From: a virus
IMG/VR virus record: IMGVR_UViG_3300035180_002574
Span: 1-64,000 of that record
Strand: one strand, 5' to 3'
DNA length: 64,000 nucleotides
A model generated the notes under the pieces. It made no database searches. It was not told the origin of the DNA and worked only from the letters and a program-made list of their open reading frames with translations. This document shows, one piece after another, positions 4,932 to 27,247 of the stretch. A program made the translations under genes and the position numbers. The number at the start of each line of letters is the position of its first letter. Position 1 is the first letter of the stretch.

Positions 4932-4937
4932 GTGCCC

Positions 4938-8560: not shown

Positions 8561-8638
8561 GCTTGTCGATCGATGGAACCGAGGACCGGGCTCGATTGCC
8601 CGGTCCCCAATCCCAATCAGATCACGGAACGAACATGT

Positions 8639-8845: not shown

Positions 8846-8933
8846 TGTCAGACTCCGAGTTTGAAGGTTGTAAACGTGGATAGGGGCGATGTTGATCGAT
8901 GGGAACCTTGACGATCACTTACTCGATTCTTGG

Positions 8934-9119: not shown

Positions 9120-9155
9120 GACCCTCGTTCCTCCGCTTGTCGATTCGCAACTCTT

Positions 9156-9386
9156 CTACCCATTCGTAACGATGTGCCTCGTCATTCCAGACGACAAGGA
9201 GACGGGAACCCAGGTTCCCTTGACGGGCTTGCGCAGGTTGGCGAACATGGGCGGAAGGGGCTTGAGAATCGCAAACCCTCGGCAATAGGCGTGCTGCGAG
9301 TGCGGAGCCGCATTGGACTTCTGTCCGCACTTGGAACACACGCACGGTTCCACCTTGACGCCCGCCGACTTCTTGCTCTTCGCCAT
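9156..9386 (-). CDS. Small Cys/His-rich (zinc-finger-like) protein
   Basis: Start reassigned to ATG 9386 after motif plus GAGG; CVCSKC...H..C. Confidence 0.6.
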   Translation of the reverse strand: MAKSKKSAGVKVEPCVCSKCGQKSNAAPHSQHAYCRGFAILKPLPPMFANLRKPVKGTWVPVSLSSGMTRHIVTNG

Positions 9387-9515
9387 CTTGAACCTCTTGT
9401 CGATTGATGGATCACGCTTGGCGCGATGATTACCATTATAACTGTCGAACCACACCTTTCCATACCAAAACCTTTTCGGTATGGAATATGAGTTATGAGT
9501 TTCGTTCGCGGGCGT

Positions 9516-10148: not shown

Positions 10149-10344
10149 AGCTTCGCTCCACCTTGCCGATCGATGGAATGCCGTCAAACCATTCGACGGC
10201 GCATCCCGTTTCGCTTTCCTGCTTTCGGTGCGCATTGTCGATCGATGGAACCACACCGCGTCTCACAATGTCGCACAATGAATCACGCCCCGTCGTTTCG
10301 CGTTTTCGCTCGGGGCATTCTCGCCACCGCTTGTCGATCGATGG

Positions 10345-10421
10345 AAGGCATCGCCGCTTGTAAGGCATCGCCGCTTGTAAGGCATCGCCGCTTGTAAGGC
10401 ATCGCCGCTTGTAAGGCATCC
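10345..10421. repeat. Tandem 17-mer (AAGGCATCGCCGCTTGT) x4 plus a partial copy
   Basis: Units start at 10345, 10362, 10379 and 10396. Confidence 0.95.
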
Positions 10422-10461
10422 TACATTATCCTACCTTGGTATCTATAAACTTGCGGATCTC

Positions 10462-10482
10462 TATTAGCAAACTTGGTGCCAA
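10462..10482 (-). promoter_or_regulatory. sigma54-type promoter P3
   Basis: TTGGCACCAAGTTTGCTAATA. Confidence 0.8.
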
Positions 10483-10531
10483 CTTCCCCTGCGCTCAATA
10501 TCCTACATTGTGTGTGAATGTAATAAAATGG

Positions 10532-10568
10532 ATGACTTGTCATCCCAAGCATGACTTGTCATCCCAAG
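10532..10568. repeat. 19-nt tandem duplication ATGACTTGTCATCCCAAG(C)
   Basis: Two adjacent copies. Confidence 0.9.
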
Positions 10569-10619
10569 TGAGATATGTCGGGGCGAGTAATCAAAGGTGG
10601 AAGGTGATCCGCGGAGCGT

Positions 10620-10640
10620 TATTAGCAAACGCCGTGCCAC
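10620..10640 (-). promoter_or_regulatory. sigma54-type promoter P4
   Basis: GTGGCACGGCGTTTGCTAATA, near-perfect consensus. Confidence 0.85.
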
Positions 10641-10744
10641 CTACCTGCACACATAAAAACGCAGGGTGTCGTACCTTTCCTTACTTTTAGGGTCTTTCTT
10701 ACCTTTCCCTTCCCTTCCGCCCCGCTTGCACTTGCCCAAGACAT

Positions 10745-10789
10745 AGCCTCGGCGGCTCCTAGATCATTGCTAGCGAAACCGCCGAGGCT
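10745..10789. other. 11-bp GC-rich inverted repeat (hairpin without a U-tract)
   Basis: AGCCTCGGCGG...CCGCCGAGGCT. Confidence 0.6.
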
Positions 10790-10971
10790 CCCACGCCTTT
10801 CTCAGTCACATAATATATATGTTCCCCTCCGCGCCCACGTGCCAATCGGGAGCAAAAGAGAGGCGACCGCTAGGGCGTCCTTTGCGGGCATCACCCGCAC
10901 GTCAATACGGTGGATCTTGCATTATTGCCCCGCAATATCTAGGTGAGGTTACTTGTCGATCGATGGGATGG

Positions 10972-11298
10972 CTAGTTGAGCTTGCTGCCCAGGAAGGGGA
11001 CGGGATCCGACGACGGATGCGCCTGCGCCGTGGAGACGAGCTTGTAGACGCGCACGGCGTCGGCGACGCACTCACCCTTGATGATCTTGATCTCGACTTC
11101 GTTCCTGGCGTTGCTGATGGCGGCGCTGTAGGCGGCGCGGATGTTCGGGGGCAACTGCGGCTCGAACTTGTCGAAGACGCTGGCGACAAGTTCGAGACGC
11201 CGCTCCTCGAACGCGTTCATGAGCGGACGCAACTCGGAGCCCGCCTGTTGGCACGCTTCGTAGATTTCCTTGAGAACCTTGGAGACGTTCATGTTCAT
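10972..11298 (-). CDS. Hypothetical protein
   Basis: Start reassigned to ATG 11298 (GGAGG RBS after motif 11313). Confidence 0.7.
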   Translation of the reverse strand: MNMNVSKVLKEIYEACQQAGSELRPLMNAFEERRLELVASVFDKFEPQLPPNIRAAYSAAISNARNEVEIKIIKGECVADAVRVYKLVSTAQAHPSSDPVPFLGSKLN

Positions 11299-11332
11299 AC
11301 CTCCGAACTTCTGTGTCGATCGCTGGTAACTT

Positions 11333-11584
11333 CTAGAGGAGAACGGTCTCCTGGTTGGGGTGCGCGGGACTGGATGAATAGACCTTATCCAGACGATAGC
11401 CGTGCGCCTCGCACCACTTCTCGATAGACTGGAACGTGACCACGTAACCATGGAAGGGCTCGTCACCCTTGAACAGCAGAACCTCGTGACGCATGAGTTT
11501 GGGCGCGCCTCCCTTGGGCGCCGCCATAAACTCGGTTTCGGCGTCGAAGATGGAACGGAACGTGATTTCGACCATTGATGACAC
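11333..11584 (-). CDS. Hypothetical protein
   Basis: ORF track; GAGGT RBS. Confidence 0.7.
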   Translation of the reverse strand: MSSMVEITFRSIFDAETEFMAAPKGGAPKLMRHEVLLFKGDEPFHGYVVTFQSIEKWCEAHGYRLDKVYSSSPAHPNQETVLL

Positions 11585-11612
11585 CTCTTACAACACCCCA
11601 CTATCTCATGCG

Positions 11613-11873
11613 CTAGACGTCCTTGAGAGGCGCTTGATACTGGTCCTTGTTCCACTTGCGCAGGGACGCGTCTTCGATGGCTTCCTTCGACTCCTCGATG
11701 CCTGCGCCGGTGCGGTCGCGAAACTCCTTGATGCGCTGGATCTTGTTCTCGTAGACGGGAAACCTGCTACCCTTGGCGCAGGCATCGCGCGGCGGGGGAC
11801 CGAGCTTGTCGTCCTTGACCAGCTCGTCTGCGATAGCATCCCATTCGCTCCTGTCGATGAACATCTTGAACAT
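11613..11873 (-). CDS. Ribosomal protein L7/L12 C-terminal-domain-like protein
   Basis: NKIQRIKEFRDRTGAGIEESKEAIE matches the K..IK..R..TG.GL.EAK..VE helix-turn-helix of the bL12 CTD; the EF-Ts N-terminal domain is similar. Confidence 0.6.
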   Translation of the reverse strand: MFKMFIDRSEWDAIADELVKDDKLGPPPRDACAKGSRFPVYENKIQRIKEFRDRTGAGIEESKEAIEDASLRKWNKDQYQAPLKDV

Positions 11874-11921
11874 TAGTACCTCTTACTGTGTTGTCGATCG
11901 GTTGTCGATCGATGGAAGACT

Positions 11922-12131
11922 TTAGAAGACCGCCCGCTCCTCCACCTTGTAGGAGGTGATGACGACCTCGACCTTGGCGTCACCCACCACGCTGCCACCC
12001 TTGGCATGGTTCTTGGTCATGGCGAAGTGAGTGGCGGCGCCAATCGAGGCGAAGCCCTTGATGTCACGCCGAGTCAACTTGCCCGTGGCGGTATCGAACG
12101 TGAGGGCGGTAACGACGAACTTGGTGCCCAT
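11922..12131 (-). CDS. Hypothetical protein
   Basis: Start reassigned to ATG 12131 (GGAGG RBS). Confidence 0.7.
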   Translation of the reverse strand: MGTKFVVTALTFDTATGKLTRRDIKGFASIGAATHFAMTKNHAKGGSVVGDAKVEVVITSYKVEERAVF

Positions 12132-12397
12132 GTATGTTACCTCCGACTTGAGGCTTGACTTCAATAGAAGGATGGCAGCTTTCACGCCTTAGCTGCCCTG
12201 TAGCGCCTTTGCGACCCGGACGTTTTCCGTCAGTGCGCTATCAGCATCGCTCACATTCTCGCCTTTCATTGTCGATCGATGGCAGCCGTCGCTTTTTTTG
12301 TTTTCGTTCCCTGCCCTCGCCTTTCATTGTCGATCGATGGTGGACCGCCGCCGCACGTTCCTTATTATACGCGGCGACGACCACACCACACGCCCTT

Positions 12398-12418
12398 TAT
12401 TAGCAACGCGCGTACCAA
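12398..12418 (-). promoter_or_regulatory. sigma54-type promoter P5
   Basis: TTGGTACGCGCGTTGCTAATA. Confidence 0.75.
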
Positions 12419-12525
12419 CCACAATGTAATCAGGAATATATCGGGGGAAACGTGCCAGATAAGCGTCGGGCGCCCTAAACCACCTTCACTCACCGTGTGG
12501 ACAGATGCTTACATGTAGGATAAAC

Positions 12526-12564
12526 GACGAAAGCCCGCTCGCTTTTCAGCGGCGGGCTTTCGTC
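12526..12564 (-). terminator. Terminator-like hairpin
   Basis: 13-bp stem GACGAAAGCCCGC/GCGGGCTTTCGTC just after the stop at 12573. Confidence 0.75.
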
Positions 12565-12572
12565 CGTCAGTA

Positions 12573-13217
12573 TCAGTAGGCGTTGCTTGCGTCGTCGAGC
12601 TGGCGCGCCTGCGCCAGCAGCTTGTTCGCGAGCGTCACGTTACCCTCCTTGTCCGCCTTGCTGGCGGCGTCGAGCAGGACGCGCTGCTTCGCCTTCATGT
12701 CGGCGACCAGGCGCCGAGCGGGCGCGGGCATACCGGCAACGTAACCGGCAACCGTGGGCGAGAGACGCGGCGCCTTCCCCTCGCCCGGGTTTGGATCGAG
12801 GGTGAGACGGGCGCGGCGAGTCGCCGCCGCGAGCGCGGTCCCCAGGTCGTCGACCTTGAAGCCGCAGCACTGGAGCAGAAGAATGGTGTCGTGACGCACT
12901 TCGTGCGGATTCTTGAACGTGACGGGCTTCCGCTTCAGGTTGACAGCGGGCGCCCCGGTCACTGGATCGATGGCTTGACGAACGCCAACCATCGACGCGA
13001 GCCTGAGAAACTCCACCGCGTCGTTCGTCTCGTTCAAATCGAGCACCACGCCCACCGTCTCATGCGGAATGACCTTGGCGCTCGCCGCGCCGGCAACGCG
13101 CTCCACCTTGGGAGCCTTGACCGCCTTGACCGTTCGCGACGTATCGTCCAGCTTCGGGTCTTCGACCAAGCTGGAAACGGTGCCAGTCGCATCGGAGAGG
13201 AGAGAGGAAAAGTCCAT
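12573..13217 (-). CDS. Ala-rich hypothetical protein, first gene of the GC-rich block
   Basis: ORF track; GAGG RBS; very high GC3. Confidence 0.75.
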   Translation of the reverse strand: MDFSSLLSDATGTVSSLVEDPKLDDTSRTVKAVKAPKVERVAGAASAKVIPHETVGVVLDLNETNDAVEFLRLASMVGVRQAIDPVTGAPAVNLKRKPVTFKNPHEVRHDTILLLQCCGFKVDDLGTALAAATRRARLTLDPNPGEGKAPRLSPTVAGYVAGMPAPARRLVADMKAKQRVLLDAASKADKEGNVTLANKLLAQARQLDDASNAY

Positions 13218-13462
13218 TGAAAACCTCTTAGGGTTTGGGTTCGGGCGGAGCTTGCGCCCCGCGATGAATTCCCTTGCCTTTCGCGCCGTCCGCCAGTAGT
13301 AGGGGCGAGAACTTTGTCTCGCTGCACCTTGGAATCACCTTGCCGATCGATGGTACCTGGTTTCCCCCTCCCACTTCGGTTCGTTCCCTTTTTCGTTCCC
13401 TGTCTCAGCCTTCCATTGCCGATCGATGGGAGACCGGATTCCAGTCGGGACGGAACCGGCGC

Positions 13463-13483
13463 TATTAGCACACCTTATGCCAG
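13463..13483 (-). promoter_or_regulatory. sigma54-type promoter P6
   Basis: CTGGCATAAGGTGTGCTAATA. Confidence 0.75.
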
Positions 13484-13528
13484 CGGTAGGGTGATGTAGG
13501 ATAGGCTCCACGACACTCGCTCGACCGC

Positions 13529-13549
13529 TATTAGCAACTACCATGCCAC
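13529..13549 (-). promoter_or_regulatory. sigma54-type promoter P7
   Basis: GTGGCATGGTAGTTGCTAATA. Confidence 0.8.
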
Positions 13550-13561
13550 CTACATTGTAGG
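13549..13561. promoter_or_regulatory. Dyad box CCTACATTGTAGG abutting the -24 element of P7
   Basis: Perfect 6-bp inverted repeat; half-sites recur in the other modules. Confidence 0.55.
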
Positions 13562-14039
13562 CTAAAAAGACCGAAACCACAGATGCCAAACATTCCAATC
13601 GGAAAATAAAAATCTTATACTACATGTAAGATAAAAAATTACTTTATACTTCATGTAGTGTGATGTAATAATAAAAAGTATTTATACGACATCGTAGGAG
13701 CTATAAGAGAAGGTGGTAGAGGTAACCAATAAGCGCCCAATGGGCGAAAAGGTAGGCGATGTGGGTGGAGGTGGTAGATGTGTGCCTGGCAAACAGGAGC
13801 ATCTGTGGCTTATATTGATTAAAAGTTACTAAAAAACCATAAAACCACCACCCACCTACCTCTGCACACCATTTCAAATCGCCCCTTATACCTCTAGAAA
13901 GTTAGTCAATAGAACCCAATTAGAGTCCCTATAATGATTCAAATGGGACTTATTACCACTTCTCCCCACCAAATGACACCTTTATAATTATGTTTTTTAA
14001 CCAAACATCTTGTGTAATTAGAAATAATTTGCTTTTTAG

Positions 14040-15744
14040 GTAAAAATATTAAAAATATTAATCGTTTTATTTTCCGAATTAGTTTAGAGAATATGATATT
14101 GAGGCGTCCACATTTTTGAGATGATTGAAAGGCATAAGTTAGTGAGGCTTATCTGGTTTAGTGAAGCTTATCTGGTTCTTAGGTTGAAGAGAAGTTAAAC
14201 GGAATATTAATTTGTACGGTATTTTGGAAATGCATAACATATTTTATTTTACAATATTTACAATTGATCCAGATGCCATAGACATTATCGGTGATATTTT
14301 GTAGTTAGGGAGCCAGATTATAATTGTTCAGGTTTCATGAGAATATGAGATAAGTTTTCATTTTATGTTTAAGTTCTGGGGGTGTCATATTAAGAAATTT
14401 ATTAGCGTGATCATTATCTTTACCGAAGAAGGAGATTTTGTATAACCGAGATCTTCAGCCAGAGAGATGTTGGATATGGTGATAATATATTCCACGAATC
14501 ATTTGGGTCATCAATTTTGTGGGGGAGAGGGGTTACAATTGTAGCAATTGATAATCATGGGGCGGGTGGCGTCATGCAAGGATTTTGGCAATAAAGATTT
14601 TTGCAATACGGGAAGCCAGCAAGGAACTTTCTTTAGGTAAGTTATAAATTTTATTAATATGAATTTTATTAAGGGGATATGATCGAGGGCTATATTATGG
14701 AGGTTGTAGAAAAGCGATGGAGAGGCAGGAGCCATCTTGTTCTCCGATGGAGATGGCTAACCATTGATTTGTGTTTTCAATTGATTTGTGTTTTCATGGG
14801 ATATTGGACCTGACAATATAGACGGCTTCGAGATCTTCATTGCGGGGCATTTGGAATATCATTTAGGCAGAACCAGCGAGGAATAGATTTGGGAATCGAG
14901 GAAGATCATATGAATGGGAGGAGTGGACAGGAGATTGAAGGAGATTGAAGGAGATTGAGGCGGGAGATATCGAGGGATTGTTTTTGAAAATTAAGACGAA
15001 TTTCGATAACATTTGATTTGGTTGTCATTTATTGGGGAGATGAGGTGGGGGTTTCCACATTTTTGGCAATGGAGCATTTGATTTTATTGCAAAGCCGGCA
15101 TTGAATATTCATGAGGGCGCGAGATAAGTTTTGATTTTTGTGGATTTTATCCGGGGACCAAGTTCGGGCGTTGTGTTAGTTTAACTTTATTATTGGGCGG
15201 GGACCATAGGAGAGCGGAGGGGGTTTAAGCAAATTGATAAATTGGTCCCGGGGGTTTTGGTTCCATAATAAACGACGATCTTTTGAAAAGATCGGAGGGT
15301 GGATTGATGATTTGTGGTGTCGCAAGTATATTTGGCAATAATAATAAATGATTTCCCATGTAATCAGTCTTGCAGATTGTGGAATTATTTTATTACAAAA
15401 CCAGCAGGTGATTTGCTTGGGCGGAGCATTTAGATCATAGGAAAGGGATTAATTTCTTTAATTTATTGGAAATTTGATCTTTATTGAGATGGGGGCAAGA
15501 TTATTTTTTCCGATTTGATTATGTGTGGAGATAATTAGCTGATTGGAATGCGGGAGAAATCCGAGGTATAAATTTTTGAAATAAAAATCGGATATTTGTT
15601 CGGGATGATTGCGATCATAGAAATAGGCATTATAGGCAGAGGAGCAGTCATTGCATATTGGCATGGAGAATGATTGGTGGCATCTCCATGTTGATTGCGG
15701 ACCAAATTAATTTCTTTATTGCAGAGCCAACAAGCGGGAATCAT
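14040..15744 (-). pseudogene. Chain of decayed CxxC / C-terminal-FS family genes
   Basis: Relic ends KHKMKTYLIFS* (14335), LLPFI* (14906), TKIKTYLAPS* (15109), NKLKKLIPFL* (15435); relic starts CYNCN, CRLCNK, CWFCNK, CWLCNK; linked by ATGA overlaps. Confidence 0.75.
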
Positions 15745-16076
15745 AAGAAAAAGATCAATTGGTTTACTTTCTTTTTAATTTGTTCGATGGACATATGGAG
15801 AAGATTTTGTTCGCCGCTGGCTAGGATATTATCTCGATCCACGATGGCATAACCTCCCTCCGGATATATTCTGGCTCTTATATTGGTTTTAACATCAATT
15901 TCCCAGAATTTGATATCTGGTTTATCATGATATTTAAGAACGAAGAGGGTATGACATTGTGGGCAGCGCGAAGTTTTTTGAAATTCTCGAATTGAGAATG
16001 AATAAGCTTTTAATTCGGTATAAACATATGGAGTTTTGCAATAATGGCATTGAATATGAAAAGAATTGGCAATCAT
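15741..16076 (-). CDS. CxxC zinc-ribbon family protein, tail KKVNQLIFFL
   Basis: CHYC and CPQC; C-terminal motif. Confidence 0.75.
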   Translation of the reverse strand: MIANSFHIQCHYCKTPYVYTELKAYSFSIREFQKTSRCPQCHTLFVLKYHDKPDIKFWEIDVKTNIRARIYPEGGYAIVDRDNILASGEQNLLHMSIEQIKKKVNQLIFFL

Positions 16077-16462
16077 AGGAATGGCAATAATTTATTAAAT
16101 CGTTTATGAATATATTGAATAGGAGAAGATAACAGCCAAATTGGGTTCAAAATCATAATGATTGAGCATTTGAATGGGTTAGTTTTTAGCTCGAATAATT
16201 TGGCTTCAAAATTTTTGAACAGGAATTCGATAAAAAGGTTATCGGAAATATGGAGCATAAATCTTTCCACCTCGAATCCGAGTGTGGAGCGCGTCCAAAA
16301 GTATGAGATTTTGCATTTGGTGCAATTAATAATAATAAAAGTATTTAATTTGAATGGAAGTTGATCATACCCTTTAAATTTATTATCGACCTCTTCGGGG
16401 GAGAGGAGAATATTATTACAAAACCAACAATGGGGCGTTGGGTTCATGCAAATGGAATTCAT
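16073..16462 (-). CDS. CxxC family protein, tail KRFNKLLPFL
   Basis: CWFC and CTKC. Confidence 0.75.
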   Translation of the reverse strand: MNSICMNPTPHCWFCNNILLSPEEVDNKFKGYDQLPFKLNTFIIINCTKCKISYFWTRSTLGFEVERFMLHISDNLFIEFLFKNFEAKLFELKTNPFKCSIIMILNPIWLLSSPIQYIHKRFNKLLPFL

Positions 16463-16789
16463 GCAAATGGAATAAGTTTGTTAATTCTTTTGAATATGAC
16501 ATCCAAATTATTGGGCGGGGCGGGGCGGGGCGGGACATAATCTAAAGAGAGGGGGCATGAGAGAATATTTTCCTTGGGCTTTGAATTTTTATTCAAGCGG
16601 GGCATCATTGTGGATATGGTAAGTACTTAAGCAAAGATCAGAAAATGGAACATCAACATTTATTATGTGAACAAAATTCTCTGAGGAGAGATGATAAGCT
16701 TGACATTGAACAGACAGAATGCAAAGTAACCCTCTTGTTCTTAGGTTGAGATATTTGTTTTGTGCAGCTCCAGCAAAAGAAAATTTCAT
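16459..16789 (-). pseudogene. Decayed family member, tail KRINKLIPFA
   Basis: FCWSC restored by +1 T in a T4 run; (GCCCC)4 expansion; internal stops. Confidence 0.7.
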
Positions 16790-17161
16790 TTATAAAAATG
16801 GCATAAGTCTTTTAACTTGATTTCTAATTAATTTTAGATCTTTGAGAACAAAAGAGAATGGAATGTTAATTACATTATGATTAATTCCTGAAAAGGTTCC
16901 AATATAAGTCTTATTTTCTTTTAAGTTTGCTAAAACGTAAAGATTATCTTTTATATAGATTTCAAAATAATTTAGAACCCAATTAATTTTATCTGTTTTG
17001 ACGGAATAACCAACCTGGCAATTATGGCAGTAGGCGAACCAACCCTGGATTGGTGGATTTTGAACATATGGACTTTTGTTATTTACAAAATCAATAAGAA
17101 AAGCGCCTTCTTGATGGAGGCTTGGTATTTCTTTATTGCAATAAAAACAGGTTGGTTTCAT
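16790..17161 (-). CDS. CxxC family protein, tail NQVKRLMPFL
   Basis: CFYC and CHNC. Confidence 0.75.
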   Translation of the reverse strand: MKPTCFYCNKEIPSLHQEGAFLIDFVNNKSPYVQNPPIQGWFAYCHNCQVGYSVKTDKINWVLNYFEIYIKDNLYVLANLKENKTYIGTFSGINHNVINIPFSFVLKDLKLIRNQVKRLMPFL

Positions 17162-17471
17162 GAAAACGGAATAAGTCTTAAGACCTTATTTTTAAGGGTT
17201 TAAAGCGGGAGATGAATGATGGATCCAATAGGAATATATTATTAAGAGCTATTTTATTTATTGGATAAAGATGAGTCATACCATCCCTTTCAGGAGAAAC
17301 ATTTATTATCAAAGCTAGCTTATCACCCAATAATTGGGATCTTCATTTATATCAACGGGATCTTTCATATAGGATGAATAACTAACATCTAATTCTTCTA
17401 AGAGAAGTTTTAAGAGAATAAGCCTCATTATTGGTCTCTTGATTACAAGAAAAACAATGGGTTAGTTTCAT
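17158..17471 (-). pseudogene. Decayed family member, tail KNKVLRLIPFS
   Basis: MKLTHCFSCNQE start; several frame changes. Confidence 0.7.
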
Positions 17472-17825
17472 ATGAATGGCAATAATTTCTTAATTTTGTG
17501 TTTTAGTTCCGGGATGGTTAAATACAGAACCTGTTCCATTGGAATCTCAAATAATGTATATGTTCTATATATTCCATATTCTTTATATTTTTTCATTGTG
17601 CAAGCATTACCGCTATAATAAATGAATTTCGGTATTAGTATCGTCAATTTCTATATTAATGGAGCGGATTACTTGAATATAAACGTTTCGCAAGATAATA
17701 TAAATAGTTTTGCAATACGAGCAATATACGTGTCGGAATGCTTCATCATAGCGATAATCTTCTTCTTGAAATTCCTTATTACAGTAATAATAGTAGTAAC
17801 AATAATAACGGCAAAATTCCATCAT
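17468..17825 (-). pseudogene. Frameshifted family member, tail KHKIKKLLPFI
   Basis: ORF 17613-17825 continues in another frame to 17468. Confidence 0.75.
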
Positions 17826-18250
17826 GAGAATACGCTATACATCTTAAGTTTTTTAACTATAATATCCATATTATGGTTGAATAAGAACCAATCTTCGAGT
17901 TCGGAAATCATTTTAGTATTGACGTTGCTGGAAAAATTATTCCATTCTACTTTAAATGATTTAAGAACAGTAGATCCGTTAAAACACCACATATGAATAC
18001 ATAGGTCCTTATATGTAGCTACCACTGCATCTACTACCCATTCTTTAATATCTTCTCTATTCCAACTATAAACCAATTGAAAATCAGATCCGTTAAATTG
18101 GTGATGGCAGATAGACAGAGATTTATATATGAAAGTTATTTTATTGGAATTATTTATTGTTGTTGTTTTATTAACCTCAAGATTTTCCATTGCGGAATTA
18201 CACATAAAACAAACGGCATTAGGTAAATTGTCGGTATAATTTTCTGTCAT
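17822..18250 (-). CDS. CxxC family protein, tail KKLKMYSVFS
   Basis: CFMC; C-terminal motif. Confidence 0.75.
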   Translation of the reverse strand: MTENYTDNLPNAVCFMCNSAMENLEVNKTTTINNSNKITFIYKSLSICHHQFNGSDFQLVYSWNREDIKEWVVDAVVATYKDLCIHMWCFNGSTVLKSFKVEWNNFSSNVNTKMISELEDWFLFNHNMDIIVKKLKMYSVFS

Positions 18251-18675
18251 TTCAATATGGAGTAGGTAAGGATCTTTTGATTAATTTTTTGGAGATTTGA
18301 TTGTAGAATCCAATATGGAGGTAATTCCATAACGGTTAGTAGATCGGCATTTTTTCTACGTTCATACATAATTGAGGCGCCATCCACCAGAATGTTACTA
18401 GCTCGTGGAGCTTGAATGATTGAATAGATGATAAAGTTTTTGTAATTAAGAATTATAGATGACATAATCCAAACGCCATCTTCTTTAATCCAAGAATAAA
18501 TGATTTCATTTTCCGGAACATGTCGAAAACATCTAATTCTTATACTTTCTCGACCTAATGATCCTGGTGATTCTTTTATTTGCCAGGCTCCAGAATGGTT
18601 CTGAATATCTTTTTGGCAGAACCAGCATAGAGTTACTTTAGGAAAATCTTTTGGTAGATTGAGGTTCATTGACAT
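18247..18675 (-). CDS. CxxC family protein, tail QKILTYSILK
   Basis: CWFC; start reassigned to ATG 18675. Confidence 0.7.
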   Translation of the reverse strand: MSMNLNLPKDFPKVTLCWFCQKDIQNHSGAWQIKESPGSLGRESIRIRCFRHVPENEIIYSWIKEDGVWIMSSIILNYKNFIIYSIIQAPRASNILVDGASIMYERRKNADLLTVMELPPYWILQSNLQKINQKILTYSILK

Positions 18676-18791
18676 CTGCTTCGGACGTAGATATAGCACG
18701 TCTGGGATTATTAATGTATAATCTTTAAGACCTCGATGCACTGCCACGGGGTCTTCTGTGGCTTCATTTGGGGTCTAGCGGGAGCTTAGAC

Positions 18792-19289
18792 ATGAAGCAT
18801 TCTCTACTTTTTGCATCAATAATAGCCATGGCGCTGATGACGTTCAGTTTTACCATAGGCTGTGCAACACATAAACCAGTGGCACCATGGTTATACACGC
18901 ACGTAAGTCCACCATTGCACATAAACAATTTGCAAACCATTCCGGTTTGGGTTAATGGTAGTTTTAAAGCAGAACAAATTAAGTCAATTAAAGCAGCCAT
19001 CAATGAATTAACCTTCGTTCGTCGTTTTAGCGATCATCTAATGGTAGTTGTAGGCGATAGATTAGGAGACCGCAACATTAAAACAATCATTATGCATGAA
19101 TTTGGTCACATTTTTGGCTGCTTTGACTGCTATCACATAAATATAAAAAACAGTTTAATGGTTCCAATTTATGGTAAAGATCAAGCCGATTGCATTGATA
19201 AAATATCAGTCGCCCAAGTAGCCAGCTATATGGGATTAGATGTTAATATACTTAATTATTGTGTAACCCCTAATTTCAGTAAATTATGA
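18792..19289 (+). CDS. Matrixin/metzincin-like putative lipoprotein (internally shortened)
   Basis: Signal peptide ending IGC; HEFGHIFG...H and a Met-turn LMVP. Confidence 0.75.
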   Translation: MKHSLLFASIIAMALMTFSFTIGCATHKPVAPWLYTHVSPPLHINNLQTIPVWVNGSFKAEQIKSIKAAINELTFVRRFSDHLMVVVGDRLGDRNIKTIIMHEFGHIFGCFDCYHINIKNSLMVPIYGKDQADCIDKISVAQVASYMGLDVNILNYCVTPNFSKL

Positions 19290-19903
19290 AAATAATACTT
19301 AGAATTTTTTTCTGGGTTATGTTTATAACATTAATGGGCTGCCATATCGACAAAGATTTTATCGGTCCAGCATATGTGATTCACGAGACTCATCCTACGC
19401 CGCTTTACGTGATACCAGTTTACATAGATGATAATTTCACAATAAAAGACAAAGAAGCCATTAAGGTTGCTGTTAAAAATTGGAACGAATCTCTTTGTGG
19501 GTATTTGGTATTAAAAATATCTTCCACTGAATTTAAGCTTGATCGGCGAACTATCAATCTTGCTGAAGGTGGCAAGGTTTATCTAATTCTTAAAACCTAT
19601 AGTTCCAATCCAATTATAAGTTCTAGAGACCACGCAAACTATATTGCCCTAGGTTTGGCTAATAAAGTGGGCGGAAATTGGTTATGGATAGTAAGAGATA
19701 GATTGGATGATAGCGATATCATCAATATTACCATGCATGAATTGGGACATTTATTGGGAGCAGAACATACACCCAGATACCTTATGAGCCCTAATTATTC
19801 TAAAATCGAATATCAATGCATTGATAAGTCCGCAATACAACAAGTTGCTGACAAATGGAGCCTACCCATGTCTAAATTGAGTTATTGCGTGTACAATGAT
19901 TAA
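19286..19903 (+). CDS. Matrixin/metzincin zinc metalloprotease, putative lipoprotein
   Basis: LMGC lipobox-like; HELGHLLGAEH and LMSP Met-turn. Confidence 0.85.
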   Translation: MKIILRIFFWVMFITLMGCHIDKDFIGPAYVIHETHPTPLYVIPVYIDDNFTIKDKEAIKVAVKNWNESLCGYLVLKISSTEFKLDRRTINLAEGGKVYLILKTYSSNPIISSRDHANYIALGLANKVGGNWLWIVRDRLDDSDIINITMHELGHLLGAEHTPRYLMSPNYSKIEYQCIDKSAIQQVADKWSLPMSKLSYCVYND

Positions 19904-20274
19904 GAAAAAACAAGTATCGTCTTAATCTTCGCATTGAAATTTTTTGGAGTTAGATTAGGCATCTCTTCCAAAGAGAACTTCCTAATTACTTTGGAGGGAC
20001 CTTTGTAATTATCAATATTAAATTGATCATCTTGAATTACATAAAATGTAATAGATTGTGGAGAAACGAAAGCTTCGCCAATTCTATTATCACTTATTCT
20101 GGTATACATTATCCAAGAATACCTAAACCCATTGACGTAATTATACCTAACTTGACATGAATCACATATCCACCAATCCAGTACAAACCAGAAATGTGTA
20201 GATTTTCTTAATTGAAGGTTGCAAAATTTGCAAATGTGATGTTCTTCTTCAGGAAAAGACGACATAGAGGTCAA
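19900..20274 (-). CDS. CxxC family protein, tail AKIKTILVFS
   Basis: CKFC and CDSC. Confidence 0.75.
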   Translation of the reverse strand: MTSMSSFPEEEHHICKFCNLQLRKSTHFWFVLDWWICDSCQVRYNYVNGFRYSWIMYTRISDNRIGEAFVSPQSITFYVIQDDQFNIDNYKGPSKVIRKFSLEEMPNLTPKNFNAKIKTILVFS

Positions 20275-20605
20275 CTTTTTTCTTCAACTTTTCTAGAGTC
20301 GGTAAATCTGGCTCTAATATTTTATTAAGTGTTAATGTCCTCTCGATCCCTTCCTTAAAACATCGAATATCTGTGGTGCCAGTAACATAATTGATCTCCA
20401 CAAATTTAGTATATTTTGGATTCAAAGATACTTTAAATATCTTCACAGAATTATCTTTGGGATCAGAAAAAATTTGTAAAGTATGATTGGTGCCGGTGCA
20501 AAGTCTTGTTGTGAGAGAGGATATTTTGTTAGGAAATTTCACACTTACATCGTGTTTATTTCTCATTTTGCACCCACAAACTGGGCAATTTTTGAAGTCA
20601 TCCAT
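20249..20605 (-). CDS. CxxC family protein, tail KKVDLYVVFS
   Basis: CPVC; C...H; PD motif before the tail helix. Confidence 0.8.
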   Translation of the reverse strand: MDDFKNCPVCGCKMRNKHDVSVKFPNKISSLTTRLCTGTNHTLQIFSDPKDNSVKIFKVSLNPKYTKFVEINYVTGTTDIRCFKEGIERTLTLNKILEPDLPTLEKLKKKVDLYVVFS

Positions 20606-20633
20606 ACACAGGTATATAACCTGCCGAAATGAC

Positions 20634-21008
20634 TCACGAAAAGGTAATATAAGTCTTTATCTTATTCGCAAGTTTTTGATAACCTAGAGAAAAATCGGGC
20701 TCGAAAAATGGAAGTTGGACTATACTTTTTTTGTCTACAAATTCAATACGAAATGAGTTTTCGTAAAAATTCCAAATTGCCCACATTTTTTTCAGAGGGT
20801 CCACTAATAATTTAATTGTGCCGATGGAATCTAAATTAATGATGTTGGATACAATAATTACGCAATGATACACAGACGTACATGATCTACTCTCCGCAGT
20901 TACAGAAACACTTGTAAGAGAGCTATTATTGCCAATAGTTCCATAAATGGGTATTTCGCTATATGGCATTGACTTATTACAAAATGGACACTTGTTTATC
21001 ATCTTCAT
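20634..21008 (-). CDS. CxxC family protein, tail NKIKTYITFS
   Basis: CPFC; C...H. Confidence 0.8.
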   Translation of the reverse strand: MKMINKCPFCNKSMPYSEIPIYGTIGNNSSLTSVSVTAESRSCTSVYHCVIIVSNIINLDSIGTIKLLVDPLKKMWAIWNFYENSFRIEFVDKKSIVQLPFFEPDFSLGYQKLANKIKTYITFS

Positions 21009-21370
21009 GAGAATGTTAAATACATTTTAATTTTGTTTGTCAATTTCTCTAAGTTGGAGACATCTGGATTCCAAGTCTTTTCAATCTTGATTCTTTTATT
21101 AAGATCTTTGCCAGATGTCGTGCCAACACTGGACCAAATTTCAGAATATCCTTCATCAAAATTAATCTTAAGAAGATAATGCTTGTCTTGCATTTTCCCT
21201 AATCTAATTCTGATTTTGGTTCTCTCTATGTTTTTAGAGAAAGCGTTTTCTACAAAGCGCATGAGATACGCATGATCATCGCTTAAACACGAATAATCAA
21301 GATACTTGATCTTGTAATCTGTATCCATTTGACGCGAACAAATAGGGCAATTTTTCGTCTCAATTTCCAT
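21005..21370 (-). CDS. CxxC family protein, tail NKIKMYLTFS
   Basis: CPIC; C...H. Confidence 0.8.
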   Translation of the reverse strand: MEIETKNCPICSRQMDTDYKIKYLDYSCLSDDHAYLMRFVENAFSKNIERTKIRIRLGKMQDKHYLLKINFDEGYSEIWSSVGTTSGKDLNKRIKIEKTWNPDVSNLEKLTNKIKMYLTFS

Positions 21371-21407
21371 ATTTTTTACTCATAAACTGATATATAATAA
21401 GAATAAA

Positions 21408-21839
21408 ATGAGCGTTAGTAAAGTTAAACACCAACACAAAATTATACTAGATTTTAGTGATCAAAAATTGACGAAATGCAATATTAAAAGATCTCTGAGA
21501 GATTTAAATATTGAACCCTTATTTAAGGATGTTTCCAACCATCTAATCGGGGATCAATTCATATGTATTGATAATGAAATACAGGTGGGCATGTATAGGA
21601 TAAGTCTCTTATTGCCTCCCGCAATATCTCGTTTCACAAGCCATAAGTTAAAAGAGTTTGGAGATTTCAAAATCAAAATCTTTGAAACCGGAAACAAAAG
21701 CGCCCGTGAAATTAATCTGCGCCAAGACGGTAGGTTCAAAGAACAACACTGGGTACAGAAAAATAACTACGCGTTAAAAGATCTAGAAGAGATTATCTAC
21801 CACTGTAAAAGATTAAATTATCTGAAAGCATTTATTTAA
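21408..21839 (+). CDS. Hypothetical protein, paralogue of 25419-25949 (D.RFK...W motif; tail LKAFI)
   Basis: INLRQDGRFKEQHW versus IDIMKDSRFKNRAW. Confidence 0.7.
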   Translation: MSVSKVKHQHKIILDFSDQKLTKCNIKRSLRDLNIEPLFKDVSNHLIGDQFICIDNEIQVGMYRISLLLPPAISRFTSHKLKEFGDFKIKIFETGNKSAREINLRQDGRFKEQHWVQKNNYALKDLEEIIYHCKRLNYLKAFI

Positions 21840-22426
21840 GAGAATAAAACGTACATTTTAAGTTTCTCTAGTAGTTTCTTTTTGCTTCTATATTTTCTCA
21901 TCGGAATATATGGAAGGCGTACCGTTGAAGGGGCAATAATTCTTGATGAATCTATTCTCCTAACAACAAGCTCACTTTTATTTAAAGTGGCAAAAGAGTG
22001 CAAAGAATATACATTATATTCGTCATTTATAATGACGAACTCCAACAATATCTCAGTTGGAAATATAAATCCATATTCCAAATTGAACTTTAATGGAATG
22101 CTTCGCACGCGCGTGTGGCATTTGTTGCAGTAATAGTCTAAGAACAATTTATGATCGGCGAGGTACTTTGTCAAGCCTGCAGTATTTGTAATATTGAATT
22201 TATTGGTTTTGCAGTCAATTTTTAATTTTACTGACCCCACATAACGAATCGCGACATCCACCTCTAAGTTAGTGCCACTAATATTAGGTGTAAGATAAGT
22301 CTCATCGCCGATGAGATGGTCACTACTTGAATTTATTTTTGAACATAATCTGAATAGAGCCGGTCTTCCACAACTAAAACAAGGACTATCATATAGAATA
22401 AAGTCTTTGATCGTAAACTTTTTCAT
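21836..22426 (-). CDS. Long-type CxxC family protein, tail EKLKMYVLFS
   Basis: CFSC and CNKC. Confidence 0.8.
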   Translation of the reverse strand: MKKFTIKDFILYDSPCFSCGRPALFRLCSKINSSSDHLIGDETYLTPNISGTNLEVDVAIRYVGSVKLKIDCKTNKFNITNTAGLTKYLADHKLFLDYYCNKCHTRVRSIPLKFNLEYGFIFPTEILLEFVIINDEYNVYSLHSFATLNKSELVVRRIDSSRIIAPSTVRLPYIPMRKYRSKKKLLEKLKMYVLFS

Positions 22427-22431
22427 AAGTG

Positions 22432-23532
22432 TTATGCAAGTTTATCGGTTCCAGTTTTCAAATATGAAAGAAGAAAAGATTGTATGTTTCCGTCTAATAC
22501 CGAATCAGAATCTCGTGATTCCCAATCCGTCCTATGATCTTTAACCAGCTTATACGGCATCAATGTATATGTTCTAATATGATTTCCAAAAGAAATATCA
22601 GACATACTATCTATATATTTGTCTTTTTCTGTCTGTCTTTTTTTCATCTCTAATTCATAGAGTTTAGATTTTAGCATTTTAATAGCCATTTTTCTATTAA
22701 CATGCTGGTCTCTTTCGGATCTAGAATTAATTACAATTCCTGTGGGAATATGTTTCAACCTAACTGCGGACTCAACCTTATTAACATTTTGCCCGCCGGC
22801 GCCAGAAGCACGCATGGTTGAGATTTCTAAATCTTTTTCATTAATTTGAATATCGATGGTATCTTCAATATCTGGGGTTACTGCCACAGCGGCGAATGAG
22901 GTATGTCTGGCATCACCGGCATTAAATGGAGAATTTCTAATTAGACGATGAACTCCTGCTTCGCCTTTTAAGAAACCATAAGCATATGGTCCCTCAATTC
23001 TAATTGATACGGAATCCGTACAAATAGCACTATGTTCTTCTGAAGGCTTGGTGTCTAATATCTCTATCTTAAAGTCATTTGAGCCTGCCCAACGACAATA
23101 CATACGCAGCAATATAGTTACCCAATTAGCAGCTTCTAATCCACCAGCCCCAGCATTAATTGATAAAATAGCTGGATTATCATCGTTCGGTCCAGACATC
23201 ATCTGTCTGAATTCAAAGTCGGATAGATCTTTATGAGCCTTTTCTACCAGGTGAGAGATGGCTGCAATCTCATCTGGAACTACTTCTAACCCTTCTTTAT
23301 AGAAAGATACTTCATCATCAAACGTTTGCAATTTATGCAAAAGAGTGGCTAATTTTTGTCGCTCCTTCATTAAGGCAGAAGCCTTTTGAGGATCCGACCA
23401 CGCATCAGGTTTACTGACAAGGTGATCTATTTCCTCTACTCGTAATTGATATGTTTTAACTGGAATCATCTTTTTGAGAGAAACTAATTTCTCTACACAG
23501 GATTCAATCAGTTGATGCAAATTTGTAGACAT
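22432..23532 (-). CDS. prfB: Peptide chain release factor 2
   Basis: GAGGQNVNK (GGQ), SPF discriminator (RNSPFN), GEAGVHRL; a single uninterrupted ORF. Confidence 0.95.
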
Positions 23533-23607
23533 GATGCACTTTTCCTCCTCGCACAACATAACAATTGCTAAAAATTTGTCAAGGCGCCGGCAAGGATATA
23601 AATTATT

Positions 23608-24192
23608 TTATGAAAATGTGATAATTGTTTGGATCTTTTTTAACAACTTTTCTTTTGGGACCGAATCAAAAGGAATAAGATCCAGTTCTATAGGAACAGC
23701 CTCTACATTTTCAGTAGAATAAATTTTTGTTTTATTTTCCGCCCAATCATTTTGAACCCATGATGAATTAACATTGAATGATTCCCAGGACAAATTAAAA
23801 GAGCCGATCTTACTATTAAAAATAGTAAGATTGCTAGATGTAAGATAATAATGACAGCAATCATCTCTGTCACAGGATAATTCCATATGTATAAAATTTC
23901 TCCGTAAAGTATTAAAAACTATTGACTCTATAACAAAATCATGAATGAATTCATCAGCACCTTCATATCTATGTTTTATTTCTCCGGTCGAACCATCGAT
24001 CGTACCCATTATATTAGGATATCCCGAGCGACCATTTTTTATCTTAAAAGAGATTTTTCCATTTTTGTATGGATTATAGATCTTTAATTTATCCGCAACT
24101 CCCTGGCAAAGCGTTGGGTATAAATCATTTTTACAAAATACACATTTCTTTTTATAGTCAACAAACTCTTGGATATTATTAAACTGGATCAT
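23608..24192 (-). CDS. Long-type CxxC family protein, tail KKIQTIITFS
   Basis: CVFC; CDRDDCC. Confidence 0.8.
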   Translation of the reverse strand: MIQFNNIQEFVDYKKKCVFCKNDLYPTLCQGVADKLKIYNPYKNGKISFKIKNGRSGYPNIMGTIDGSTGEIKHRYEGADEFIHDFVIESIVFNTLRRNFIHMELSCDRDDCCHYYLTSSNLTIFNSKIGSFNLSWESFNVNSSWVQNDWAENKTKIYSTENVEAVPIELDLIPFDSVPKEKLLKKIQTIITFS

Positions 24193-24728
24193 GAAAATAT
24201 TACCAATTTTCTTATCCTGGCTAACGTCTCATCAGGATTATTTAGATTTATATCTATCATGGGAAACTTAGTTGTCCTAGTTTTACCAGCGCTATCATAC
24301 GTAATGAACCAAGTTTCCTCTAGCTCATAGTAAGTTCTTACTTCTGATATTAGGTTATTTTCTTCGAACGTAACTGACATAAAATTAAGATCTACTCTGG
24401 TTATCTCTGGTTTTGTAGTATCAAATTGAACACTATAAACTGTAGAAAATTTAGAACACTCTTGACAGTCTACAAGCAATGTAGACCAAAAAATTCCATT
24501 AAAATTCAAAAATTTCTTTTGTGTTTTTTGGTTATCTTCTTTTATAAGAAGAACATTTCCAGTATCTATATGAACCACATACGCATCATTTGTTTTGTTA
24601 GATAGTGGAAATTTTATTCTACTTATATCTTCATGTTGATTTTTAGAATCTAAAAATAAACGCTCGTTACACACTGGACAATGTATGATAAAATTTAAAG
24701 CATGCTTCAAACTAGTAAAAGTTATCAT
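24189..24728 (-). CDS. Long-type CxxC family protein, tail ARIRKLVIFS
   Basis: CPVC and CQEC. Confidence 0.8.
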   Translation of the reverse strand: MITFTSLKHALNFIIHCPVCNERLFLDSKNQHEDISRIKFPLSNKTNDAYVVHIDTGNVLLIKEDNQKTQKKFLNFNGIFWSTLLVDCQECSKFSTVYSVQFDTTKPEITRVDLNFMSVTFEENNLISEVRTYYELEETWFITYDSAGKTRTTKFPMIDINLNNPDETLARIRKLVIFS

Positions 24729-25372
24729 GATTCGTAAAAATCTTCAAATACTTTCTTAGTTAATCCAGTGTCTATTAAAACAGGAACTCCATCTTTAAGC
24801 CCCCAAGATGATTCTTTTGCCAAATCTCCTGGCATTAACTTAAATTCATCACCTAACTCTTTGATTTCTTTATAAAAATCATTTTTACTTACCTCATCAA
24901 ATGATTCCGGCTTATCTTTATCTGTATTACCGCTAACATTTTTTAAACCGTATCTAATACATTCTCCGAAATCATCAAAATCTATACCCGTGGCTTTTTC
25001 AAATTGTTTAGCAGTTATTTTCTTTAGGAAATGAGTTTCAATCCAGGTAAAGTTGTCGGCATGTTTTATGATCTTATTAACATATTTTGACTTTAATTTA
25101 GGGTTTGCTTCTGCTTTATTTTGAGCAATGCCCTTATCATTTTTAGCCAATTTAACTACTGTTTTGTCGGGTGTCAAGTATACAATTCTTGAAGATCCAG
25201 AGGATAAATGCTTAAAATTGCGTTCCGCGTATTTTTTACGCGCATGATACGTTTCTAGTTTTTTGAGATTATCTAATACTGTCTTAACATCTTTAGAATC
25301 CTTGGGCAGCTCTTCAGCTTTTGCCAAGGATAAAAATATGCCAGCAAATCTCAATAGTTTATTAGTATTCAT
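24725..25372 (-). CDS. Protein-kinase-like (PKL fold) protein
   Basis: SSGSSRIVY Gly-loop, VVK lysine, E in helix C, GDL catalytic loop, LIDTG (DFG-like). Confidence 0.75.
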   Translation of the reverse strand: MNTNKLLRFAGIFLSLAKAEELPKDSKDVKTVLDNLKKLETYHARKKYAERNFKHLSSGSSRIVYLTPDKTVVKLAKNDKGIAQNKAEANPKLKSKYVNKIIKHADNFTWIETHFLKKITAKQFEKATGIDFDDFGECIRYGLKNVSGNTDKDKPESFDEVSKNDFYKEIKELGDEFKLMPGDLAKESSWGLKDGVPVLIDTGLTKKVFEDFYES

Positions 25373-25418
25373 ACGGTAAATACAAAGTTATTAATATTTG
25401 GTTATATTCATATATAAT

Positions 25419-25949
25419 ATGAACAGAATATCTGTTGAAGATTTTTTGAAACTAATTCAAGACTCTCAGGAAGAAGATTATACCACCGAGAGTGAAGAAG
25501 AAGTTTGGGCAAATGATCATTACTATCTTCCGGATAAGTACAAAAAACTAGAAAAATTCCTACATTTTAAACCGCCCAGCGAATCTATTATTGATCTTAC
25601 CAATTGTAAGAAGGACGACATTCAAGAGCTTTTATTTAAAAGTACGAAGTTTAAAATTGGTAAATTTACATTAACCATCAATAAATATTATGGAATCCCC
25701 GGAGATGCGGAATCTTCATTAGCACTAGACATTAGATTAATGGAACATAGGATCAAAACCCCAAATGGGAGTCCATGTAATATGGATTTTGATATCGACA
25801 TCATGAAAGATAGTAGGTTCAAAAATAGAGCCTGGCTTTCTTATTTTAATACCAAAGGCAGGAGTTATGGTATCGGAATACCCACTGATGTAGTAGTGGA
25901 TATTGTTAGATGGTTACAAGCCATTACCAAACTTTGTGCTTTTCTTTAA
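25419..25949 (+). CDS. Hypothetical protein, paralogue of 21408-21839 (tail LCAFL)
   Basis: Shared motif; ATG directly after CATATATAAT. Confidence 0.7.
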   Translation: MNRISVEDFLKLIQDSQEEDYTTESEEEVWANDHYYLPDKYKKLEKFLHFKPPSESIIDLTNCKKDDIQELLFKSTKFKIGKFTLTINKYYGIPGDAESSLALDIRLMEHRIKTPNGSPCNMDFDIDIMKDSRFKNRAWLSYFNTKGRSYGIGIPTDVVVDIVRWLQAITKLCAFL

Positions 25950-26590
25950 GAAAAAATGATTAATCGTTTAATTCTATTCGTCGTCTCTGACTCAGAAACG
26001 AAATCTATAAGCGGAACTTCTAAGAAGTTTGCATTATGAGCGATAGCGTCATGAACAGCATCTAACTGATGGTTAGATTTGAAATAGAATATGTGGCTTT
26101 TTTCTTTAGAAGGATTATTTATTAACCTATATATTTTATAGGTACCGTTTTCCATTTGAAGAAAAAGTCCAAAAAATTCTGAATGTATCCCAGGGATGTC
26201 GATTTTGCAAGCATTAAAATCAATATTTAATTGATTTGAATTGCAGGAATATCTTTGGCAATCATAATTATCGCAGAACATATAAAAAGAGAACGCGCCC
26301 AGGTTATCATAAAATTCTTTAAATCGATTAATAATCGATATGCTAACATAATCATGCAAATGAACATTTTTATTATAAAACTCTATACAAAAATTATTAG
26401 TTTCATGTTCTATTGAAAAACCTACAGCGTATTCTTTTTGTTTATTCTTTTTGAGAAGATCAAAAATAATTAGTCTGCTATTATTTTCTAACTTCCATCT
26501 TTGTTTTCTTTTGGAATGAAAAACACACCTAAGTGAAGACCCGCAAAAAGGACAATGGGAACGTCGGTTAAGAAAATCAGATAAATTCAT
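25946..26590 (-). CDS. Long-type CxxC family protein, tail NRIKRLIIFS
   Basis: CPFC; CDNYDC. Confidence 0.8.
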   Translation of the reverse strand: MNLSDFLNRRSHCPFCGSSLRCVFHSKRKQRWKLENNSRLIIFDLLKKNKQKEYAVGFSIEHETNNFCIEFYNKNVHLHDYVSISIINRFKEFYDNLGAFSFYMFCDNYDCQRYSCNSNQLNIDFNACKIDIPGIHSEFFGLFLQMENGTYKIYRLINNPSKEKSHIFYFKSNHQLDAVHDAIAHNANFLEVPLIDFVSESETTNRIKRLIIFS

Positions 26591-26635
26591 GTAGCCTCAT
26601 TCCCTACAACATAACACTTCGGCAAAACATTGCAA

Positions 26636-27247
26636 TCAGGAAAATAATACTAAAGTTTGGATCTTTTTTCTTATTTTTCAGGATCAGCCCTATATTTATA
26701 TAATTTGTTAATTGGTAATACCAAAAGTGGTTCATAGTTAGCATATCTGTATTGTAATTTTGACGCTTTAAGAGTGTCACTTATAAAAGTTTTAGATGGC
26801 AAAAACTCATTAATTACTTTAAAATATCCACCATTGATATCTTGTATATAATAACTTTCCTTAACGGGTCGATGACCAATAAAATTGAAAATACATCTTA
26901 TCTAATTCCAATTTTAAACTGTATTCACATTCATGTTCTCTTGAATATCTCTTGTAAAAATACTTTCAGATAATCAATCTCATCATCTTTTCCCTCCATG
27001 TCACAAGAGTCGTTAGTCATACTAACAACCACATTAAAATTAATAGTTCCATTATACAATCTAACTTTAAGCGGAAAAATTATCCTTTCACCATCATTGT
27101 TAAATGATTTACTTGGAGAGAAACTGGTCTCATAACCATTAATATATGCTGGGTCAGACATGTCATAATAAAGAGGTGTAAGTGGTTCTCCACATAAGCA
27201 AGTAGACTTATATTCGAATAACTCCCCAAATTAGTTATGGCTTCCAT
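26636..27247 (-). pseudogene. Decayed long-type family member, tail RKKIQTLVLFS
   Basis: MEAITNLGELFEYKSTCLCGEPL restored by +1 G; about four frame breaks; ORF-track pieces at 26931 and 27080. Confidence 0.7.

Follow-up and report, generated by a model that had tools for sequence, protein, structure and literature searches.

A tandem array of divergent zinc-ribbon proteins with an unusually constrained C-terminal end in a giant phage

Why should proteins whose bodies have diverged beyond pairwise recognition keep nearly the same C-terminal end? This question is raised by an array of small genes in the IMG/VR virus record IMGVR_UViG_3300035180_002574, of which the window analysed here, i.e. 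the whole stretch of DNA under study, is the first 64 kb (positions 1–64,000 of 181,177 bp; CheckV completeness 42%). Megaphages of 0.4–0.5 Mb are uncultivated, and most of their genes are without a known role. The first-pass annotation of the window, made from the letters alone, had described a large family of paralogues with a variable zinc-ribbon body and a conserved tail, and had proposed that the tail is a docking appendage for one common partner while the variable domain picks the target. The array is a lineage-specific zinc-ribbon expansion in a giant phage, with an unusually constrained C-terminal end, and this end is examined below as a feature of the protein, of the predicted fold and of a possible shared interaction.

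The array consists of 13 intact minus-strand CxxC genes, two plus-strand genes for zinc-less tail-bearing proteins (termed X and Y here) and about eight relics, and has a footprint of roughly 10 kb in the source phage (Table 1). The 13 minus-strand open reading frames (ORFs) span 15741–26590, and in each of them the CxxC motif lies within the first 17 residues. They fall into two size types, short (111–166 aa) and long (179–214 aa). The earlier count of 13 intact genes and at least eight relics, the ORFs and tails quoted with it and the division into short and long subtypes all proved correct. The isoelectric points of the members range from 4.8 to 9.5, a variety that fits poorly with a uniform nucleic-acid binder. 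As no significant similarity between the member bodies was found by pairwise BLAST, their homology rests on profiles and predicted structure. The view of a single family, variable in its bodies and strongly conserved at its end, is supported.

The family ending is [K/R]-h-x-x-h-x-x-F-x-stop, the exception being the member at 18247, which ends in YSILK. In its strict form the motif closes 11 ORFs of the 181-kb record, all of them at 15.7–26.6 kb, compared with 0.19 expected from the frequency of the motif inside proteins. A hidden Markov model (HMM) of the tail alone, a scan that the first-pass annotation had suggested, was run over all six frames of the record; it recovered every intact member and seven further tail fragments at 14.3–26.7 kb, and nothing comparable outside the array. 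Among 138 representatives of the family, position −9 is Arg or Lys in every sequence, position −2 is Phe in 133, and the C-terminus lies exactly one residue past the aromatic residue in all 138. Since all 60 orthologues of X also end in F-x, the fixed end holds for 198 of 198 sequences. No longer or fused forms of the family were found, which is weak evidence. In the long members the tail carries 2.41 bits of information per column, compared with 1.38 for the strands and 1.23 for the other helices, so that it is 1.7 times as conserved as the strands and twice as conserved as the other core helix; in the short members the values are 2.01 bits for the tail versus 1.23. Positions −12, −11, −8, −5 and −4 are hydrophobic and make up the amphipathic face of the tail helix.

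A constrained end of this kind could in principle be a signal in the nucleic acid (for translational coupling, a promoter, a terminator or a recombination site) and not a feature of the protein, and the overlap of several of the genes by ATGA would suit such an explanation. However, synonymous codons vary at every conserved tail position: Lys is encoded by AAA or AAG, Arg by CGA, AGG or AGA, Ile by ATT, ATC or ATA, Phe by TTT or TTC, and the tail Ser by all four TCN codons (TCA, TCT, TCC and TCG). The members stop at both TGA and TAA, and the sequence downstream is unconserved. The tail also ends genes at convergent junctions, where there is no downstream gene. Because synonymous variation in the tail is free, selection acts on the protein; a DNA-level explanation is excluded by the codon variation, and we regard it as almost certainly wrong. 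The earlier remark that the terminal FS is not a by-product of the ATGA overlap holds equally, as the genes at 19900, 21836 and 25946, all three at convergent junctions, end in TCT-TAA and the Ser codons vary. At these junctions (19900–19903, 21836–21839 and 25946–25949) a single TTAA supplies the stop codon of both convergent genes, an overlap that leaves no room for a terminator at any of the three convergent junctions of the array.

A profile built from 15 array proteins retrieved 277 representatives at E ≤ 1e-3 among 1.84 billion sequences, most of them 180–220 aa long and matched from end to end. All ten of the representatives that were looked up are metagenomic and are either unnamed or labelled hypothetical; the contigs bearing representatives include records of 256 and 479 kb. 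Scans of the members against Pfam, PHROGs, NCBIfam and PADLOC gave no significant match (for PHROGs, E ≤ 0.01), tblastn and megablast against 50,697 phage records gave no relatives, and literature searches found no description of the family, in agreement with the first-pass annotation, which knew of no described phage family of this form. The family is real and old and, as far as these searches show, confined to one megaphage clade.

The cysteines that define the family are strictly kept: 139 long members keep C17, C20 and C107 without exception and C112 almost without exception, and 47 short members have three invariant Cys residues and a fourth ligand that is Cys or His. In the predicted structures the N-terminal CxxC and a second knuckle (CxxC, CxxxxC or Cx2-5H) form a split four-ligand zinc site. 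AlphaFold, run with alignments of long and short members, gave confident models for the long member at 23608–24192 (pLDDT 93.4, pTM 0.88) and for the short member at 21005–21370 (pLDDT 89.0, pTM 0.80). The short form is modelled with a zinc knuckle, a meander of seven strands and a single helix at the C-terminus, whereas the long form has an extra module of four strands plus a helix, about 85 residues in length, between the two knuckles. The profile of the short form matches the long members in their C-terminal half, and the converse match is also seen. Models of relatives in BFVD, made independently and labelled 'uncultured Caudovirales phage', superimpose over their full length with TM values of up to 0.79 and a root-mean-square deviation of 2.7 Å. 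The tail is helical up to the last-but-one residue in both models, with pLDDT values of 93–98, and in the short form it is the sole helix of the domain. Since the tail helix is modelled confidently within the domain, the tail is, on these models, the closing helix of the domain and not a free docking peptide, so that the proposal of a separate docking appendage is not supported. The models come close to the outcome that the first-pass annotation had named as speaking against its own proposal, a tail that is a buried structural helix of one shared fold: the closing helix is what they predict, and its burial is deduced from them.

By the thresholds applied for a solved fold (Foldseek E ≤ 0.001 or VIA Z ≥ 8), neither form convincingly matches a known structure. 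The best Foldseek match has an E value of 0.067, and the best Z scores are 6.0 for the long and 6.4 for the short model; TBP chains match residues 4–127 of the long model with Z scores of 4.4–4.8, which is within the noise of the list. Profiles of PDB sequences gave solely sub-threshold zinc-knuckle matches (Clr2, E6 and ribosomal zinc ribbons), and the Trm112/YcaR-type ribbon family NF008806 matched one member, in its N-terminal knuckle only, with 17.4 bits against a cut-off of 126. An ESM Atlas look-up of a long member returned a poor single-sequence model with no usable neighbours.

The tail is not restricted to proteins with a zinc site. X and Y lack it and yet carry the tail; X belongs to a single-copy family, and with the tails trimmed HHalign detected no similarity of either protein to the zinc family. 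Between X and Y, trimmed in the same way, there is a weak match (probability 67–69%), and Y is possibly a distant paralogue of X. In G003, a complete relative of the source phage, the strict motif closes 20 ORFs, where 0.38 would be expected; ten of these encode no CxxC and are scattered through the genome.

Taking these results together, we tentatively favour a reading, which we put at a little under an even chance, in which the members are zinc-nucleated scaffolds with variable binding surfaces and the closing helix is both structural and the carrier of a shared recognition feature, of which the free C-terminus is a part. The members would be small cytoplasmic zinc-binding α+β proteins, with the conserved ends as the frame: the CxxC and the second knuckle would close one zinc site, and a C-terminal LP-turn followed by a 14-residue amphipathic helix would lie on the β-sheet. 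The sheet and the loops between the ends, which differ in each paralogue, would be the likely specificity surface, and each copy would probably bind a different host or phage target during takeover. For the tail a second, shared function is proposed, in which a ridge formed by R/K −9, K −7, T −6 and F −2 and a C-terminus that must be free and lies one residue past the Phe would be read by a putative common factor; this might be the Clp protease pathway, the kinase-like neighbour described below or, through oligomerization, other members of the family. Such a common reader is plausible because the tail is much better conserved than the rest of the fold, has a fixed end and is common to zinc-less proteins. 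Several observations weigh against this reading. In a small domain, structural reasons alone can make a lone helix that spans the entire sheet the element that changes least, and the burial of the tail helix is itself a property of the models. With the tail removed, even the long and short zinc forms are scarcely connected by HHalign; its failure to link X or Y to the family therefore counts for little, and the two may simply be divergent zinc-less homologues. Within the 181-kb record the tail is confined to the array, and the purifying selection described below does not by itself point to an arms race.

If these points are given full weight, the tail could be purely structural, i.e. the core helix of a shared fold, with its conservation and fixed end arising from packing and genome compaction, with X and Y as diverged members of the same fold and with no reader at all. 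The high-confidence models in which the tail helix is an integral element, the classic amphipathic face formed by positions −12, −11, −8, −5 and −4, and the tight packing of the genes, whose starts and stops overlap, all agree with this; packing alone, however, would not be expected to keep basic residues invariant on the polar side of the helix or to fix the C-terminus in 198 of 198 sequences. The information content of the tail, given above, also weighs against it, and we consider this explanation unlikely, although it deserves serious weight. A shared oligomerization interface, through which the paralogues would form homo-oligomers or hetero-oligomers, also with X and Y, could account for two adjacent hydrophobic stripes on the tail helix, for the sheet face that a one-sheet, one-helix domain leaves in need of cover, and for the occurrence of the tail in co-located families; the monomer models do not require it, and only a small probability is assigned to it. 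The free, flexible docking peptide or degron of the original proposal, which would pass the variable target-binding domains to one machine (protease, clamp or export), much as poxviral ankyrin/F-box proteins do, seems quite improbable to us. Its fixed free C-terminus and basic-then-hydrophobic character loosely recall the ClpX degron RRKKAI of MuA (PMC8138137), the tail also closes proteins without CxxC in G003, and the near-complete relatives G001 and G003 each encode two adjacent, stand-alone, full-scoring and bona fide ClpP genes (E about 1e-46 each). However, the models give the helix the same confidence as the sheet, the short form has no other helix, no ClpP was found in the 181-kb record of the source phage, and no clear ClpX was found in G001 or G003, where there is just a weak AAA+ match, in G003 to a generic 368-aa AAA+ protein. 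The broadest view would take [K/R]-h-x-x-h-x-x-F-x-COOH as a clade-wide address tag that is used across protein families and read by a dedicated machine, such as a ClpP1/ClpP2 protease of the phage together with an unfoldase of host or phage origin, with the array as a battery of adaptors that deliver host proteins; to this we give an outside chance. If true, it would be the bacterial-virus counterpart of the poxviral ANK/F-box or papillomavirus E6 degraders.

Whatever the role of the tail, the members are working genes. The gene order is kept in relatives, which show X, the gene for a 215-aa protein, long members, release factor 2 (RF2), a long member, Y and then short members, with a tandem run of 16 to 20 or more short members after Y and over 25 family genes; syntenic arrays of more than 20 copies flank the RF2 gene in relatives of about 450 kb. 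The members adjoining RF2 have positional orthologues with 27–40% identity in four related contigs, whereas for the five distal members (15741–18747) no positional orthologue was found in the loci of relatives examined. In comparison with the close relative L001, the ratios of nonsynonymous to synonymous substitution rates (dN/dS) are 0.07–0.23, and the changes are concentrated in the loop after the first CxxC, while the last ~30 residues are almost unchanged. These ratios and the positional orthologues indicate functional genes under purifying selection, with copies being born and lost at the distal end.

Of the published systems, the closest to the array is that of Bacillus phage G, for which a lineage-specific expansion of about 35 zinc-ribbon proteins has been described (Iyer et al., 2021; PMC7824862). 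In both cases many small, diverged zinc-ribbon genes stand in tandem in the genome of a giant phage and encode an N-terminal two-knuckle zinc ribbon, and the present family has weak Foldseek matches to gp166, gp35 and gp410 and an hhalign match to gp166 (probability 90%, 25 columns). However, the similarity to gp166 stops after the 25-column zinc knuckle, gp166 has no F-x tail, and the two sets share neither a PHROG (E ≤ 0.01) nor a tblastn match (50,697 phage records); the fixed F-x end, the long and short forms and the position around RF2 are features of the present array unlike those of phage G. The poxviral arrays of ankyrin/PRANC (F-box-like) proteins, in which a variable part picks the target and a conserved C-terminal element engages a host machine, serve as a working analogy, but there is no homology and no F-box, and the end of the array proteins is predicted to be part of the fold. 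Papillomavirus E6, with zinc domains and a PDZ-binding C-terminal end, is likewise an analogy only, since its profile match (E 0.011–0.018) is not significant and comes from the two CxxC motifs and their spacing. The C-terminal degrons of ClpX, such as LAA of ssrA and RRKKAI of MuA (PMC8138137, Table 1 therein), resemble the tail in that the signal is fixed at the free C-terminus with basic residues before a hydrophobic end; the array tail differs in ending in F-S or F-L, in its longer spacing and in being predicted to be helical and packed.

The array matters in that a family with no curated counterpart or solved fold occupies a conserved block alongside genes for translation and of the takeover type, and in that two or more body types have in common a C-terminal element with an invariant end. 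A common reader, if there is one, would show how a giant phage organizes dozens of accessory proteins; if there is none, the family nevertheless represents a new and compact scaffold, nucleated by zinc and with surfaces that nature has diversified.

Table 1. Coordinates of the array genes, their decayed copies and associated genes (positions in the window unless a relative is named)
Feature	Position	Strand	Remarks
Run of decayed copies	14182–15774	−	copies at 14182–14454, 14909–15180, 15179–15448, 15438–15774; tail pieces 14338–14454, 15112–15180, 15438–15500; N-terminal/middle pieces 14182–14304, 14909–15028, 15179–15448, 15538–15774
Short member, 111 aa	15741–16076	−	tail KVNQLIFFL
Short member, 129 aa	16073–16462	−	tail RFNKLLPFL
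Relic	16462–16789	−	tail fragment KRINKLIPFA at 16462–16626
Short member, 123 aa	16790–17161	−	PFL-type tail QVKRLMPFL
Two relics	17161–17825	−	17161–17489, tail 17161–17199 with N-terminus 17385–17489; frameshifted copy 17468–17825
Short member, 142 aa	17822–18250	−	tail KLKMYSVFS
Short member, 140 aa from database ATG	18247–18669 (ORF open to 18747)	−	deviant tail KILTYSILK
Two paralogous HExxH (HELGHLLGAEH) metalloprotease-like, metzincin-like genes inside array	18768–19903	+	one with lipoprotein-like leader
Short member, 124 aa	19900–20274	−	tail KIKTILVFS; dN/dS 0.21 vs L001
Short member, 118 aa	20249–20605	−	tail KVDLYVVFS; dN/dS 0.07 vs L001
Short member, 124 aa	20634–21008	−	tail KIKTYITFS; L001 orthologue ~66% identical, dN/dS 0.23
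Short member, 121 aa, modelled	21005–21370	−	tail KIKMYLTFS
Y, zinc-less tail-bearing protein, 143 aa	21408–21839	+	tail KRLNYLKAFI
Long member, 196 aa, just downstream of RF2	21836–22426	−	tail KLKMYVLFS; orthologues in four relatives, 32–39% identity
RF2 gene, embedded in array	22432–23559	−	same position in all relatives examined
Long member, 194 aa, modelled	23608–24192	−	predicted zinc ligands C17, C20, C107, C112; tail KKIQTIITFS
Long member, 179 aa	24189–24728	−	tail RIRKLVIFS
215-aa gene inside array, protein-kinase-like as lead only	24725–25372	−	Gly-loop/Lys motif
X, zinc-less tail-bearing protein	25398–25949 (as 25419–25949 = 176 aa)	+	tail WLQAITKLCAFL; single-copy family, 60 orthologues
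Long member, 214 aa	25946–26590	−	tail RIKRLIIFS; TAA stop within TTAA common to convergent gene
Relic of long member	26639–27230	−	tail KIQTLVLFS 26639–26677; N-terminal-like piece 26934–27230
ClpP pair in relatives	L017:17479–18653 (G003 217.5–218.7 kb); G001 66.5–67.7 kb		two adjacent genes

The decayed copies listed in Table 1 were assembled from the tail fragments of the HMM scan and from N-terminal fragments added by whole-protein profiles. As relics occur from 14182 onwards, the extent of 15741–27247 that was first proposed needs correction at its start, which lies near 14.2 kb and not at 15.7 kb. An alternative genetic code was considered as the cause of the relics and rejected, because recoding leaves the relic region closed and code 11 fits the phage part. 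In the relic-rich segment 13600–16600 the GC skew, taken over windows of 200 bases, is very strongly positive (+0.3 to +0.5).

Among the other genes of the array, the 215-aa gene is the best conserved, with a mean column identity of 74% and 55–73% identity across relatives. Its product has no Pfam match; it matches the SteC kinase weakly over the Gly-loop and Lys region (E 0.084), and its neighbours by Atlas features include clusters that carry Phage_T7_kinase (17% of members) and Kinase-PolyVal. As R-x-K-T-h and a terminal Ser occur in the family tail, the tail could, judging by these residues, be a substrate of this candidate kinase. The two HExxH genes are conserved in L001 with a dN/dS of 0.07.

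From ~13.6 kb onwards the DNA has a GC content of 32–39% and a good fit to code 11, and its phage and takeover-type genes encode ribonucleotide reductase, PhoH, GMP reductase, dUTPase, RF2 and tail-fibre-like proteins. No terminase, sought for classification, was found in the fragment of the source phage. The relatives located through the RF2 gene are 349–452 kb in size, one of them with terminal repeats and rated complete, and on this basis the source phage is taken to be a megaphage of roughly 0.45 Mb.

The first 13.6 kb of the window (1–13600), which adjoin the array, have a GC content of 48–56%, compared with about 34% for the rest. A chimeric assembly was considered for this block and rejected, because in G003, which has terminal repeats, ~50 kb at 46–62% GC also lie next to the array (410–452 kb plus 1–10 kb; L027–L029 and L007) and a few genes of that block have protein-level homology to window 1–13600. 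Within the GC-rich block of the window, a 14-bp element, CCATCGATCGACAA, occurs in 15 copies in a single orientation at 4.4–12.3 kb and is absent from G003. The block also contains a tRNA-like gene at 5879–5952 on the minus strand (Rfam 48.5 bits), to which ARAGORN assigned no anticodon, and at its start, at 401–507, an (AGAC)n microsatellite of 27 copies.

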